From the NCBI GenBank assembly GCA_963741205.1, contig CAVUHW010000018.1, positions 64,001 through 128,000 on the forward strand: DNA of 64,000 nt. Direction: 5' to 3'. Every line of letters starts with the position of its first letter. Position 1 is the stretch's first letter. The notes under the pieces were generated by a model, which did not search any database, was not told the origin of the DNA, and was given only the letters and a program-made list of their open reading frames with translations. Of the stretch, positions 7,390 through 12,993 are shown in pieces. A program made the position numbers and the translations under genes. This DNA comes from Nitrospirota bacterium. Its GTDB lineage: Bacteria > Nitrospirota > UBA9217.

Positions 7390-10052
7390 ATGAAGAAAGG
7401 ATTTTACAGGAAGTCGAGTGCGACCGTGCGGTTCACGGCATGGGTCGTAATCTACGCGTTTCTCATGCTGCCGAGCGGCGTGGCATTTGCAAACCCACCC
7501 GCGCTCAGCACGGTGAAGATTCCCTCACCGCCGAATCTGGATGATTTCGTGAAGGACAAGAAGGCGGCCATCATGCTGGGCAAGGCCCTGTTCTGGGACA
7601 GCAGGTGGGCGGCGACGGCGGTCAGGCCTGTGCCAGTTGCCACTACATGGCGGGCGCTGACCCCTATGATGTAAGAAACAAGAACCAGGTCAATCCCGGT
7701 CCGAACGGGGCCTTCGACGTGGTGACCGGTCCCAACCAGACCCTGGCAGATCGGCCTTCCCGTTCTGTGCAGGTGTCGGACCCCGCCGGCGCGAAACTGG
7801 AGAACGGCCTCGGGGTTCTGTGCACCGGCACACCCTGCACCGGCACGACGTATAAGGACGACGTCGTCGGCTCCCAGGGTGTCAGCTTCGACCATCTTCA
7901 CCAGTTTATCCGGCACCGCACGGGACACCGGGAACGCCGTTGATGACCCGACGTTCCACTTCTCGCGGCAGGGTGACCGGACGCAACACCCCGCCCGCGG
8001 TCAACGCGGTGTTCAACTACGCCAACTTCTGGGACGGCCGGGCCAACAATATCTTTAACGGCTGCAAGCCCCATCGGTCCCCTCGATGGAAGCGCGGGAA
8101 TCTGGGTCAATCTGGCAGGGCCTACGGAAACGCCGAATCTTCAGTTCCAGAAGGTCGCCATACCCAACGCGAGCACTCGCTTCCCAGGCAGTCGGTCCCC
8201 CGAACAATGGCACTGAGATGTCGTGGGACGGCCGCAACTTCCCGCAGCTCGGCCGCAAACTGCTCGACCCTCACCCCGCTCGGGCAGCAGCATCGTGGAT
8301 CCCAATGACAGCGTGCTGGGGGGACTCTCTCCAACGCAGACACACGGGACTCAACACCACGACCTACGCCCAGATGATCCAGAACGCTTTCTATGAAAAA
8401 TACTGGGATTCGTTCGGCCAGACCATCGTCATCAACGGCACGGCCTACAACCAGATGGAGGCGAATTTCTCCCTGTTCTGGGGCCTTTCGGTCATGCTCT
8501 ACGAGTCGACCCTGGTCTCTGACCAGACGCCCTTTGATCTGGGCACCATGACCGCCATACAGCAGCAAGACGGGCTTCTCGGTATTTAACGGGAAAGGCA
8601 AGTGCACCAAATGCCACAGCGGCTCCGAGCTCAGCGACGCTACGGTCTCCGACGCCCTTGCGAACGGCCTGATCGAGAAGGGCGCAGACCAGGACCAGCG
8701 AGGCCATCAGCGACAACGGCTTCCACAATCTCGGCGTAAGCCCCACGGCGGCTGACATCGGCCGGGGCGGCGTCGGCGGCTCTCCGTTCATACAGAACAG
8801 TTTCTCGATTTCGTCCTTTGCGCAACAGGCGATCGCCCAGGCCAACGGCGGGCTTCTGTTTACCGCGCCGCAGGCGATCTTCGGCGGGATCACAGCCAAC
8901 ACGCCGGTCGCGGTGAACGGCTCCTACAAGACCCCGCAGCTCCGAAACGTGGCCTTGACCGCACCCTATATGCACAACGGCAGCATGCTCACCCTCGCCG
9001 AGGTGGTGGAGTTCTACGCCCGCGGCGGGAATTTCGCCAATGCTGAACAGGCCAAGGACATGAGCGGGCCTTTCGGCGGAGGCGCCCTGGCTCCGGCCGA
9101 TCGTAACCGCTATCGTGGACTTCCTCCAGAACGCCCTGACCGACCCGCGGGTAGCTGCGGAGACGGCCCCCTTCGACCATCCGACGCTGACGATCCCCGA
9201 CGGCAACGGTTGCGGATACCAGAATCACTCTGCCGGCCACGGGCGGCAGCCTGGCGGGCTACACCTTCGATCTCGACAATTACCTAGCAACACGCCTTTG
9301 CGACACTTGTGTCGAGACCACGACCCTGGCCGGCCTGCCGAAGGCTGAGATCACCGGCGCCCCGGCCGGCGTGACCAATCAGACCGGCGCGACCATAACC
9401 GTCGGAGGAGCGGACGTCGTGGCCTTCATGTACAAGCTCGACAACGGTGTGTACAGCGCGGAAACTCCGACAACCTCGCCGATTGCCTTGACTGGCCTGG
9501 CCAACGGCGCCCACACCGTATCAGTTGTCGGCAAGAATGCGGCCGGGAGCTGGCAGCTTGACGCATTCGCGACTACCGCGAGCTGGACCGTTAACACCAC
9601 CCCGCCGCCGGTTAGTATCAATCCCGTCGCTTCGAACACCAGGAACACAACCCAGACCATCGCCGGCACGATGGAAGCAGGGGCTACGGTAACGGTGAGA
9701 GTGAATACCGGGGCCACGGTCGGACCCGTCACGGTCAGCGGCAACTACCTGGACCTGCCAGGTGAGCGGATTGGCAAACGGCGACAACACCATTACGGTC
9801 ACCGCCACCAACGCCAGCGGCAACACGAACAGCTCGACGGCCACTATAAAAGTAGTCATCGCGGACGGGTGCTTCAGGGGTACAGGAAGCCCGGACATCA
9901 CCGACGCCCTGAAGGCCTTGAAAATGGCGGTCGGGATCATAGCGCCGACAAACGACGATCTGCTGCACGGGGATGTCACGTCAGACGGCAGGATCGACAC
10001 CGGCGACGCATTGCTGATCCTGAGGAAATCGGTCGGCATGGCGGCGTTCTAG
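7390..10052 (+). CDS. Large secreted di-heme cytochrome c peroxidase/MauG-family protein (SACCP/CorB-like) with Ig-like domains and a C-terminal dockerin-like domain; many frameshifts
   Basis: Signal peptide ..[96 protein letters not shown]; Thr-rich beta domains; tail [14 protein letters not shown]...[23 protein letters not shown]. Confidence 0.8.
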
Positions 10053-10134
10053 CGAGTTGTGAGACCGGCTTGTCAGTGCAAGCTTGCAGGCCTGCAAGCC
10101 GGACATTTAACGGGTTATTAACGAGGAGGAAGCC

Positions 10135-11325
10135 ATGAAATTAAGGAACTTACTAGTGTTGGTCTTAAGTCTGGCGGTGCTTGCGCTGGCGGGCTGCGGC
10201 AGTTCGAGCAGCAATAACACGCCGGTGTCGACTCAACCAGGAACCCAACCCGCCTTATCGACGGTCATAAACGGCCTGGCCTCAAAGGGGCCGATCAATA
10301 CGGGGACGGTGAAGGTCTTTGCCGTACGGAACGGCGTCACGGACACGTCCGTGCCGATAGCCACGGGAACAACGGACGCCAACGGAAACTTCACCGTTGA
10401 CGCCGGCGGCTTCAATGGTCCGGTCGTCGTGGAAGTGACTGACGGCTCGTTCACGGACGAGGTGACCGGCGCGAAGGTGACCCTGAAGACGCCGCTGCGG
10501 ACAATGGTAGCCGACGTCTCAACCGGGACGTCAACGGTGGCGGTTACCCCGCTGACCGAACTGGCCGCGAAAAGAACGGAAACTCACGCGGCAATAACGC
10601 CCGACGTGATTAACGAAAGCAACAAAAACGTCGGCGCCACCTTCCAGCTCGCCGACATCGTAACGACCCTGCCGATCGCGACCGGCACCGCGGAGCAGAA
10701 AAAGCACGCCTCAGCCTGCGGCGCCATTTCGCAGCTCGTGAACAGCAGCAGGCATGCGGGAGAGTCTACGGACGATGCCCTGTCAAGGGTCATGGGCGAA
10801 ATGGAAACCGAGATAGAAAATAGCGGCGGTTTATCGGATGACTCCATCAGCAAAATAAACACCGCGGTAACGGAGTTCAACAGCAGCGGTAAAGGCAGCG
10901 GCGCTCCGGTGGCAGCTCCGACCGACGGCGTGCTCAAAATCAGCACATCGGGTGCGAGCTTCATGGGCGCCCTCGACATGACGCTCAATTTACCGGCCGG
11001 AGTGACGGTGACTGTTGCCGACCCGGCCACGGGTGAAGCGGCAGCAGGGACTGTCACGAATTCAGGCGCAGCCGGCACCGGTACGCAGGTGGCGGCCAAG
11101 GTCATCCCGACAACCGGCGGTACTCCGGGTCAAGTGGTAATAGGCATGATTAACCCGGCCGGGTTCGGCGGCGGCGAGTGCCTCACGATCGACTTCAAAA
11201 TTGCCACGGGGGTGAACTTGCCGGCCGCGGCCGACTTCACCATCACCGGCGTCTCAGCCAAGGATCTCGGCGCCAAGCTGATCAATGGTGTGACTGCCGC
11301 GCCGAAATCAGTGGCAGCAATGTAA
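10135..11325 (+). CDS. Lipoprotein with an N-terminal beta-sandwich/helical region and a C-terminal cohesin-like domain
   Basis: Intact 396-aa ORF; lipobox LAGC plus Ser/Pro linker; C-terminal ~130-aa all-beta region GVLKISTSG...LDMTLNLPAGVTV...GFGGGECLTIDFKI...ADFTITGVSAKD. Confidence 0.75.
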   Translation: MKLRNLLVLVLSLAVLALAGCGSSSSNNTPVSTQPGTQPALSTVINGLASKGPINTGTVKVFAVRNGVTDTSVPIATGTTDANGNFTVDAGGFNGPVVVEVTDGSFTDEVTGAKVTLKTPLRTMVADVSTGTSTVAVTPLTELAAKRTETHAAITPDVINESNKNVGATFQLADIVTTLPIATGTAEQKKHASACGAISQLVNSSRHAGESTDDALSRVMGEMETEIENSGGLSDDSISKINTAVTEFNSSGKGSGAPVAAPTDGVLKISTSGASFMGALDMTLNLPAGVTVTVADPATGEAAAGTVTNSGAAGTGTQVAAKVIPTTGGTPGQVVIGMINPAGFGGGECLTIDFKIATGVNLPAAADFTITGVSAKDLGAKLINGVTAAPKSVAAM

Positions 11326-11522: not shown

Positions 11523-11770
11523 TACAGATTACAGATATGTAAAGCAATTATAATTCAATTGCGTTCTCCGAGCTGCACTGCAGTGAGGCTGCAATCACAA
11601 CTGCATCGGTTTTTATCCGGGATACCGATGTCTTCTTAACAAATCGGCATGTCTACCCATTTATTTCGAAAATTTTGTAATAGACTTGATATAATAGAGA
11701 ATAAAAAATCGAGTGTTCGATTTAGCGGTCTTTGACGGTACAGATATCATAGCTTGAAAAGGAGAAAGCC

Positions 11771-12993
11771 ATGAAAATAAAGAGCTTAATTGTTTCGGTC
11801 CTCAGTCTGGCAATATTGGCATTGTCAGGTTGCAGTAAGAGTAGCGATAGCACGCCGGCGCCGGTTAGCCAGCCCACGTCAACGACTGCAATCGCCGGCG
11901 TGGCCTCGAAGGGTCCGATCGCGGGAGCGGTGGTACAGGTGTTTGCCATAAGGAGCAATGTCACGGACACGGTCCCGTTCGGAACGGGGCGGACGGACGC
12001 CAGGGGAAACTATGCCGTTCAGACGTTCGGCTACAAAGGTCCGGTCGTAGTCGAAGTGACCCAAGGCGCGTACAATGATGAGATTTCCGGCACGCAGGTG
12101 ACCATGAAGACCCCGCTGCGGGCGATGTTCTCGAGCGTCGGAACCGGCACGACATCAATAGCGGTAACACCCCTGACCGAGCTGGCCGCTAAAAATGCCG
12201 AAGGGCGTCCGACATTATCGACAGATGCGATCGACGCCGCGAACAACTATATCGGCGTTAACTTCGGTGTCCCCGGTATTGTTACGACGTTGCCGATTGC
12301 CAATTCCGGCGACGCGAACCAGACAAACTATGTCAACCAATTGAAAGTCTTTCAGCAGCTTGTATACAACAGCATGCAGCCGGGCGAATTGGCCGCAGGC
12401 CAGGTCAAGGGATGACGCCTTGGCAACGGTCATGGACGGTCTGGGCAATGAGCAACTACAAGACCCCCTCCATATGACGGCCACGACCACAGCCGCGTGG
12501 GCCTTCGCGACAGCTGTGTGCAATGACGCCTCTCGGCTGCAGGGAAACGCCGCCGGTTCAGAATCCCCCCGCTAATCCTGTTGGAGGAATCCTCAAATTA
12601 GCTACAGCCGGACCGGCTACTACGACTATCTTTCAAATCACACTGACGCTTGCGTTGCCGGCCGGGGTGACAGTGAATACCGCTCCGGGTTCAACCGAAG
12701 CGGGAGGAATTTCAGTCAACCTCTCCAAACTTCTAGACCCCAAGACTACCACGTTAACGGCATTAGTTACGCAGTCAACACTTACGACACCGGGTAAGAT
12801 CAACATCGTCGTCGGGGCCACGAAAAGCTTCCCTCCTGGTCAGTTTCTTATTGTTAACTTTAACCTGGATCCTGCGACCCCCCCCCCGCCTCCCGGAATT
12901 CCTGATTTCGCAATGACCGGCGTACTTATCCAGGGATTAAAGTTGGTTACACTCGACGGGATAACCATTTCGCCGGCGCTGACATATCTTTAG
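11771..12993 (+). CDS. Paralogous lipoprotein with C-terminal cohesin-like domain; frameshifted near 12410 and 12530
   Basis: Lipobox LSGC; GVASKGPI, GPVVVEVT, KTPLRAM, AVTPLTELAAK shared with the 10135 ORF; C-terminal GILKLATAG...LTLALPAGVTV...GQFLIVNFNL...DFAMTGV. Confidence 0.75.

Follow-up and report, generated by a model that had tools for sequence, protein, structure and literature searches.

We describe a locus at positions 7390-12993 of a 64 kb stretch of DNA from a Nitrospirota bacterium of the UBA9217 lineage (assembly GCA_963741205.1, contig CAVUHW010000018.1, positions 64,001 to 128,000; the whole stretch is referred to below as the window). Three genes follow each other on the forward strand: one for a secreted di-haem enzyme that ends in a dockerin-like tail, and two for paralogous lipoproteins that each end in a cohesin-like domain. 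We lean towards the view that they form an envelope-anchoring unit, in which the dockerin of the enzyme plugs into the cohesin-like socket of the lipoproteins. Since there is one socket per lipoprotein, the arrangement is likely to be a plug-and-socket anchor and not a scaffoldin. An earlier sequence-only reading of this DNA had proposed lipid-anchored scaffoldins tethering a redox enzyme as a modular 'redoxosome'. The predicted folds and the adjacency of the genes make the tethering likely, while the scaffoldin part was not upheld, each lipoprotein holding a single cohesin-like module. The multi-enzyme scaffold is likewise unsupported: no longer protein with the module, and so no possible scaffoldin, was present among 8000 scored candidates, although this is weak evidence.

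The enzyme is encoded by a single gene at 7390-10052 that is distributed over all three reading frames (three-frame translation) and would give a product of about 880 aa if the frames were joined. It is collinear from start to stop with an intact orthologue of 860 aa, P0085 (tblastn and frameshift-aware alignment), with 596 of the 845 matched codons identical (70%). A signal peptide for Sec export (7390-7491) was recognised by eye from its hydrophobic core and an AFA end just ahead of NPP, and P0085 has the same N-terminus. Two CxxCH haem-binding motifs were found by motif scan, CASCH at 7629-7643 and CTKCH at 8603-8617. Pieces of the window gene matched the Pfam family RoxA-like_Cyt-c at 28.2 bits (cut-off 26.7), and the score of a broken piece alone for CCP_MauG (PF03150), 22.1 bits, lay under the cut-off of 25.6. 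The same family scored 64-77 bits in all seven of the closest intact orthologues (P0082-P0088, 840-924 aa). The two motifs of the window gene and the scores of its orthologues agree with the earlier assignment to the secreted di-haem peroxidase/MauG family.

Among solved structures, P0085 comes closest to bacterial di-haem peroxidases (4aal, E 5e-20), the di-haem enzyme 6e1c and MauG (about 1e-7). None of the seven proteins tested was assigned to an NCBIfam family above its cut-off; against the MauG and MbnH equivalogs (TIGR03791, TIGR04039) P0085 scored 94.5 for MauG, where 443.85 is required, and 108.4 for the MbnH family, where 362.85 is required. As these scores are far under the curated cut-offs, the enzyme represents an uncharacterised, enlarged branch of the CCP/MauG/MbnH superfamily. 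It shares the two CxxCH motifs and, through its orthologues, the CCP_MauG score with members such as 4aal, a cytochrome c551 peroxidase. However, its catalytic part is about 590 aa long, as opposed to about 320-370 aa in the solved enzymes, and it adds immunoglobulin (Ig) domains and the dockerin. The two bacterial Ig-like domains, of the Big_13 or Glucodextran_B type, lead from the catalytic part to the tail at approximately 9290-9860; they were assigned from Pfam and from beta strands in the tail-region model, Big_13 on the window pieces being below its cut-off. As for the reaction, a peroxide-type or protein-oxidising one would be a guess taken from the superfamily.

The tail (9861-10049) is 63 aa long with three predicted helices, and lies where the sequence-only reading had seen a dockerin-like motif at about 9860-10050. 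A phmmer search with the 63-aa tail alone, against 1.84 billion representatives of clusters at 50% identity, retrieved 991 representatives at E<=1e-3, of which 27 reached E<=1e-10. The 70 best of the 150 listed were scanned, and 36 of them passed the gathering score of Dockerin_1 (PF00404), many with 3-12 repeats (for example P0205, 4e-55, and P0206, 6e-78), though multi-repeat targets sum their scores and some of these E-values are inflated. Five of the 70 (P0210, P0269, P0274, P0284, P0348) also passed Cohesin. By phmmer and Pfam together, the tail is thus significantly similar to undoubted dockerins. An AlphaFold model of the tail region, built on an 18-row alignment with a mean predicted local distance difference test (pLDDT) score of 84.5, has helices at residues 65-75, 83-89 and 99-109, the three-helix fold of a dockerin. 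In a Foldseek comparison of this model with the PDB, only dockerin chains were seen at ranks 1-21 (first 17 listed rows), the best being 2ccl_B (template modelling (TM) score to target 0.84, root mean square deviation 1.8 A, 62 columns, probability 1.00). Because phmmer reaches true dockerins and the model superposes on dockerin chains, we conclude that the tail is, by predicted fold and transitive sequence similarity, a divergent type-I-like dockerin. Its second loop, of 12 residues, looks canonical and EF-hand-like when judged by the calcium-binding loop consensus, and is followed by ALLILRK. Some tail relatives have an insertion of 6-10 residues in this loop in the alignment, with the consensus APLVNGVPAP in one subgroup.

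The tail site is unique in the window (regular expression; family hidden Markov model (HMM) on the six-frame translation). The same C-terminal tail is fused to the enzyme in all seven of the closest intact orthologues. Among 120 listed enzyme relatives, 17 carry it when judged by eye, the regular expression having flagged 10, one of them falsely. These 17 intact relatives are collinear with the window gene, and the possibility raised earlier, that the tail open reading frame (ORF) is a separate gene, was rejected on the strength of these fusions. In P0082-P0146 and in the listed representatives the tail nearly always forms the protein end, with an aromatic last residue (VNF, VTF, TSF, VSW). 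Such an ending is not known to be typical of canonical dockerins.

The same tail is found on cargo of many kinds, which makes it a portable module. The tail HMM matched 138 of the 150 listed representatives; 83 of the 150 end in a single full-length tail, and 14 of the 138 have three or more stretches. Many of these representatives are sequence fragments. The scanned representatives bearing the tail include a cytochrome with eight CxxCH motifs (P0268), Lcl_C proteins (P0224, P0322), Ig, fn3 and cadherin-like proteins, an NHL-repeat protein (P0342) and further CCP-like enzymes (P0233, P0270). In P0205 (473 aa), a prepilin-type N-terminal methylation motif (PF07963, E 1e-8) precedes five Dockerin_1 stretches in Pfam, or nine stretches in phmmer, and the protein looks pilin-like with a string of dockerins.

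The two lipoproteins stand directly after the enzyme gene and are paralogous, as had been noticed before. Lipoprotein 1 (10135-11325, 396 aa) is intact and has the lipobox LAGC, whose Cys is encoded by codon 21 (10195-10197). Lipoprotein 2 (11771-12993, about 410 aa) has the lipobox LSGC and is interrupted by frameshifts near 12400 and between 12465 and 12535. Their N-terminal modules are identical at 109 of 211 residues (52%) and their C-terminal modules at 47 of 138 (34%, BLASTP E 1e-9). The AlphaFold model of lipoprotein 1 (65-row alignment, mean pLDDT 91.6, predicted TM-score 0.83) falls into three parts: a beta domain (residues 43-137), a helical bundle (139-250) and a nine-stranded beta sandwich (264-395). 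The first two constitute the N-terminal module (10261-10884). With the whole of lipoprotein 1 as Foldseek query, rank 1 was taken by 9i0d, the non-haem domain of Geobacter PgcA (E 6.8e-5, 137 columns); the output gave no query coordinates, and the matching residues are taken by us to be those of the N-terminal module. The combination of a lipobox and a PgcA-like non-haem domain is thus present at the level of fold only, a comparison of the lipoprotein family profile with PDB sequences having found no sequence-level similarity to PgcA. Reading of both lipoprotein sequences found no CxxCH motif, and hence none of the tethered mono-haem domains of PgcA.

The lipoprotein family comprises 80 clusters (90% identity) at E<=1e-3, all unannotated and none with a precomputed Pfam domain. 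Three of the lipoprotein and enzyme relatives bear an organism label, Geobacteraceae (P0060, P0102) or Desulfuromonadaceae (P0067), and the lipoprotein family has one of each. A contig scan with lipoprotein 1 found 11 loci, which match the N-terminal module only (28-38% identity) and all of which are without a CCP-like enzyme or the tail. These distant relatives occur in metagenome-assembled genomes labelled Betaproteobacteria, Hyphomicrobiaceae, Rhodoferax, Acidobacteria and Eisenbacteria, often as two tandem copies (loci L001 10001-11497, L002, L003 and L006 8327-10546).

The C-terminal domain of lipoprotein 1 (10924-11319) was modelled as a nine-stranded, cohesin-like beta sandwich, with pLDDT above 90 at residues 264-395, and a second copy is encoded at 12547-12978 in lipoprotein 2 (family HMM E 5.7e-27). 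The all-beta pattern that had been described for the last 130 or so residues of each lipoprotein is borne out. The non-cellulosomal cohesin 2xdh of A. fulgidus was the third-ranked Foldseek match of lipoprotein 1 (E 2.8e-4, TM-score to target 0.57, a whole-protein query depressing the query-normalised value), and cohesins or their complexes with dockerins account for 23 of the 46 listed rows. These matches presumably belong to the C-terminal sandwich, because their alignments, at 114-175 columns, are longer than the N-terminal beta domain with its 95 residues. By predicted fold only, then, the C-terminal domain is cohesin-like. When HMMs of the three modules were run on the six-frame translation of the window, the tail was found exactly once and the cohesin-like and anchor modules exactly twice each.

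Complex prediction was applied to one pair, residues 252-396 of lipoprotein 1 and the tail, with a separate alignment for each. The pair scored 0.39 and three controls scored 0.01-0.02 (best 0.02). Of 80 solved complexes, 58 attain the pass mark, as against 2 of 110 mismatched pairs; these counts hold only roughly here, the alignments being self-supplied. Contacts agreed between runs to at least 98%, and the partner pLDDT was at least 78. Given the independent evidence from fold and adjacency, we regard this predicted complex as mild support for the pairing.

The linkage of the genes is close, with 82 bp from the enzyme stop to the start of lipoprotein 1 and a gap of 445 bp ahead of lipoprotein 2. 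Within that gap there is a promoter-like site (11666-11695, + strand, 10/12 matches with a TG extension, by consensus match only), and a terminator-like hairpin of 12 pairs, eight of them G-C, followed by a T run, stands directly after lipoprotein 2 (13006-13044, + strand). Four of the seven closest enzyme orthologues are on contigs of exactly the same size as that of a lipoprotein family member (83271, 4682, 3929 and 146553 bp), and the contig of 3929 bp is just roomy enough for an enzyme and a lipoprotein gene (3783 bp). The pairing of tailed enzyme and lipoprotein therefore appears to recur elsewhere. In agreement with the sequence-only reading, Pfam found no carbohydrate-active enzyme (CAZyme) or carbohydrate-binding module (CBM) in 7390-12993, so that the glycoside hydrolases and CBMs of a cellulosome are absent from the locus. 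The sole carbohydrate-related match in the window is an unrelated CBM48/alpha-amylase gene at 43960-45567.

In the anchoring scheme that we favour, the enzyme would be exported by Sec and would receive its c-type haems in the periplasm, and the Ig-like spacers would hold out the C-terminal type-I-like dockerin. The lipoproteins would be lipid-anchored at Cys21, each presenting a PgcA-like N-terminal module and one cryptic cohesin-fold domain, and the dockerin would plug into this domain in one or both of them. The enzyme would in this way be tethered non-covalently to the outer membrane, whereas PgcA tethers its haem domains covalently via linkers. By analogy with PgcA, the anchor may face outward. 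The two paralogous sockets may take different dockerin-tailed cargo, as they have diverged more than the anchor modules. Binding, its calcium dependence, the outer-membrane face and the enzyme substrate are the parts of this scheme that we infer.

A number of results weigh against this scheme. The window tail matched Dockerin_1 at 16.0 bits (E 0.014) and in its second repeat only, the gathering score being 22.9. In the orthologues P0082-P0088 the match was sub-threshold in four of seven (12.7-16.3 bits) and absent from the other three, and the positive side of the Pfam comparison comes from the tail relatives that phmmer reached. A profile of the tail against PDB sequences gave a best E of 0.032, to a dockerin of R. 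flavefaciens (Ruminococcus). The Foldseek comparison of the tail model with the PDB held no match at E<=1e-3, which is expected for so small a domain. Helix 1 (11 residues) is present, and loop 1 (14 residues) is degenerate and not EF-hand-like.

The evidence on the lipoprotein side is divided in the same manner, so that the cohesin identity put forward by the sequence-only reading is backed by predicted fold and not by sequence. Pfam Cohesin (PF00963) matched none of 65 lipoprotein family members at E<=1 and none of the window pieces. The family profile matched no cohesin among PDB sequences, its best matches being to the signal peptide and lipobox. An hhalign comparison of the domain profile with a very small profile of six true cohesin segments gave P 0.017 and a probability of 2.7%, which is not significant; the aligned stretch was collinear (78-125 with 78-127), and the controls gave P 0.16 and 0.81. 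From the ESM Atlas came a lead only (0.85), to a cluster in which 45% of members have PF00963. Moreover, the Foldseek E-values of the cohesin matches are modest (3e-4 to 2e-2), and beta sandwiches converge easily. The complex prediction was returned as 'weak support': of the 80 solved complexes only seven passed at 0.60 or under, as did both passing mismatches, and the pass may reflect likeness to solved cohesin-dockerin structures and not binding. Finally, the recurrence of the gene pair was judged from equal contig sizes alone.

Some of these results would be explained if the tail were a real dockerin with its partner elsewhere, either a canonical Pfam-type cohesin encoded outside the window or a cell-surface polymer. 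The lipoproteins would then serve substrate capture, electron hand-over or maturation, and their C-terminal domain would be a generic beta sandwich. Sequence methods see no cohesin in the lipoproteins, the complex score is only a weak pass and true Pfam cohesins occur together with dockerins among the tail relatives (the five proteins named above), all of which would be in keeping with such a partner. The tail is also far more numerous (991 representatives, 50% clusters) than the lipoprotein family (80, 90% clusters), although many of the 991 are generic dockerins. However, cohesins, and not other sandwiches, predominate among the Foldseek matches of the C-terminal domain. The genes lie very close together and seem to be paired on four other contigs, and the controls of the complex runs stayed at 0.01-0.02. 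Nor was a Pfam cohesin found in the further window ORFs that were scanned (42 at E<=1e-5, 24 at E<=1e-3). We therefore consider a partner elsewhere rather unlikely. A still smaller chance is given to the tail being mainly a sorting or retention signal, such as an outer-membrane secretion tag or a calcium-dependent module that sticks cargo to exopolysaccharide or mineral. Its position at the extreme C-terminus in 83 of the 150 listed representatives, the usual aromatic last residue and the very varied cargo would all suit a signal of this kind, but position and varied cargo are equally expected of a docking module. Moreover, the fold closely matches dockerins from cohesin complexes, with the TM-score and deviation given above, and a cohesin-fold domain is encoded directly downstream.

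The frameshifts raise the further alternative that the locus is decaying, with the enzyme gene and lipoprotein 2 as pseudogenes and nothing assembled. Alignment of the enzyme gene with P0085 contains about 15 frameshift events. Their uneven spread, with about 15 in the 2.66 kb enzyme gene and two in lipoprotein 2, the 1.19 kb lipoprotein 1 being free of them, speaks for decay and counts against a functional unit. On the other hand, there is no in-frame stop along the path of 845 aligned codons, identity to the intact orthologue is 70%, and housekeeping genes window-wide are broken in the same way. Among those cut short or divided over neighbouring ORFs are LytB/IspH, cytidylate kinase, EPSP synthase, prephenate dehydrogenase, DAHP synthase and a GlmU-like gene, and likewise the RACo and M28 peptidase genes; a molybdopterin oxidoreductase and a multihaem cytochrome (5552-6365) upstream of the enzyme are also broken. 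Because of the lack of in-frame stops and the like breakage of housekeeping genes, the frameshifts are probably indel errors of the assembly. Their reading as the mark of a decayed locus was rejected, and decay is very improbable. Examples of broken stretches are found at 28975-29436, 29660-30067, 31111-32536, 32932-33946, 41061-42295, 57993-61344 and 889-2445. Indels are unevenly spread in the window, sparing lipoprotein 1, cytochrome b and ribosomal protein S1.

The closest known systems each share a part of the proposed anchoring unit. Type I cohesin-dockerin pairs of cellulosomes (Clostridium thermocellum, 2ccl, 1ohz) have the three-helix dockerin tail and the nine-stranded partner sandwich, and serve, as is proposed here, to dock a secreted enzyme to an anchored protein. 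They differ in cargo, which here is a c-type di-haem enzyme and not a CAZyme, and in anchor, which here is a single-socket lipoprotein of a diderm without S-layer homology or sortase anchor, multi-cohesin scaffoldin or CBM. Moreover, the cohesin is here invisible to Pfam (0/65), while the dockerin has a degenerate first loop and falls under the Pfam cut-off. Non-cellulosomal cohesin and dockerin modules are reported from archaea, anaerobic methanotrophs (ANME) and sulfate reducers in passages of PMC9012536, PMC10553843 and PMC5244752 that call their function unknown; one of these floats 'MHC adhesion' as a possible role. Those modules, like the ones described here, occur in organisms that do not degrade cellulose (A. 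fulgidus, from which 2xdh, our best cohesin match, derives; ANME and their sulfate-reducing partners) and on cargo other than CAZymes. However, according to the passages concerned they were found by Pfam or InterPro annotation and their partners are mostly unassigned, whereas here a cryptic cohesin is carried by a PgcA-like lipoprotein and is encoded side by side with its candidate cognate dockerin.

PgcA, the tri-haem lipoprotein of Geobacter sulfurreducens, reaches the cell exterior according to PMC11520253, where it is described as lipid-anchored, with a first domain that holds no cofactor and with haem domains tethered covalently. The lipid-anchored N-terminus followed by a cofactor-free domain is shared with the window lipoproteins; the three haem domains on (PT)x linkers are not, their place being taken by the cohesin-like domain. 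A precedent for a haem redox enzyme with a dockerin is given by Family 6 of the peroxidase-cyclooxygenase superfamily, whose members, the peroxidockerins, are haem peroxidases of bacteria with a dockerin part attached (PMC4420034). These belong to another haem-peroxidase superfamily, di-haem CCPs being treated apart in that paper, and its passages on the family mention no cohesin partner or lipoprotein. In Geobacter, genes encoding 'dockerin, cupredoxin, and laccase' are reported as highly expressed (PMC6199725). The dockerin-annotated fibronectin type III, cupredoxin and laccase genes are again a case of dockerins on redox proteins. They differ in being of the multicopper class, and in the passage in question no partner is proposed and the dockerin is taken as a sign of cellulose use. 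A term search of the main text of a survey of Desulfuromonadia multihaem cytochromes (PMC11492766) found neither dockerin nor cohesin. To judge from these precedents, the earlier remark that no characterised system of this kind was known is overstated. Nevertheless, the particular pairing of dockerin-tailed enzyme and lipoprotein was not found described in a full-text literature search, outside which most subscription journals lie. Two elements therefore look new, as far as models and sequence comparisons indicate: a cohesin, cryptic in sequence, as part of a PgcA-like lipoprotein, and its candidate dockerin partner on an adjacent di-haem enzyme.

Upstream of the enzyme gene and on the same strand are genes for a Rieske protein (3714-4121), a cytochrome b (4242-5333) and the NapC/NirT-like multihaem cytochrome at 5552-6365, whose C-terminal membrane helix is in a shifted frame. 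Together, 3714-6365 constitutes a bc-type quinol oxidoreductase module, and a functional link of this module to the docked enzyme is possible. The intervening 1 kb or so (6366-7389) has no convincing ORF and no Rfam match, contains a weak promoter-like site (6813-6840) and is unusually long for an intergenic region of the window, in the whole of which Rfam gave no match. Downstream of the lipoproteins are a NUDIX hydrolase (13507-13953, - strand) and a membrane peptidase of the BlaR1/M56-M48 type (14136-15195, + strand) that is split over two frames, both of them probably unrelated to the locus. A second respiratory cluster at 18077-22547 (+ strand) encodes a cytochrome c7-like protein, a 4Fe-4S dicluster protein, an NrfD-type membrane subunit and a multihaem cytochrome of 537 aa, and is followed at 23445-25918 by a Cache sensor kinase and a LuxR-type response regulator. 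The remainder of the window is ordinary chromosomal housekeeping.

Should the pair not bind, the locus would consist of an uncharacterised large CCP-like enzyme and two accessory lipoproteins. If it does bind, a non-cellulosomal dockerin in a diderm would have a concrete cognate partner. Cohesins would then be hiding from Pfam on lipoproteins, and censuses that report 'dockerins without cohesins' would undercount the partners. For surface display, the locus would also provide a natural plug and socket of small size and Gram-negative origin. In metal-reducing and electroactive bacteria, non-covalent mounting of redox proteins on the envelope would take its place beside the covalent tethering of PgcA. 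A wider version, which we put forward tentatively and think unlikely as it stands, is a general surface plug-in system in Geobacter-like bacteria, with PgcA-type anchors that each bear one cryptic cohesin, interchangeable dockerin-tailed cargo, and paralogues such as those described here as sockets of different specificity. If this were true, di-haem enzymes, multihaem cytochromes such as the eight-haem P0268 and adhesins would all be cargo, and the redox and adhesive make-up of the cell surface could be re-tooled without a change of anchor.

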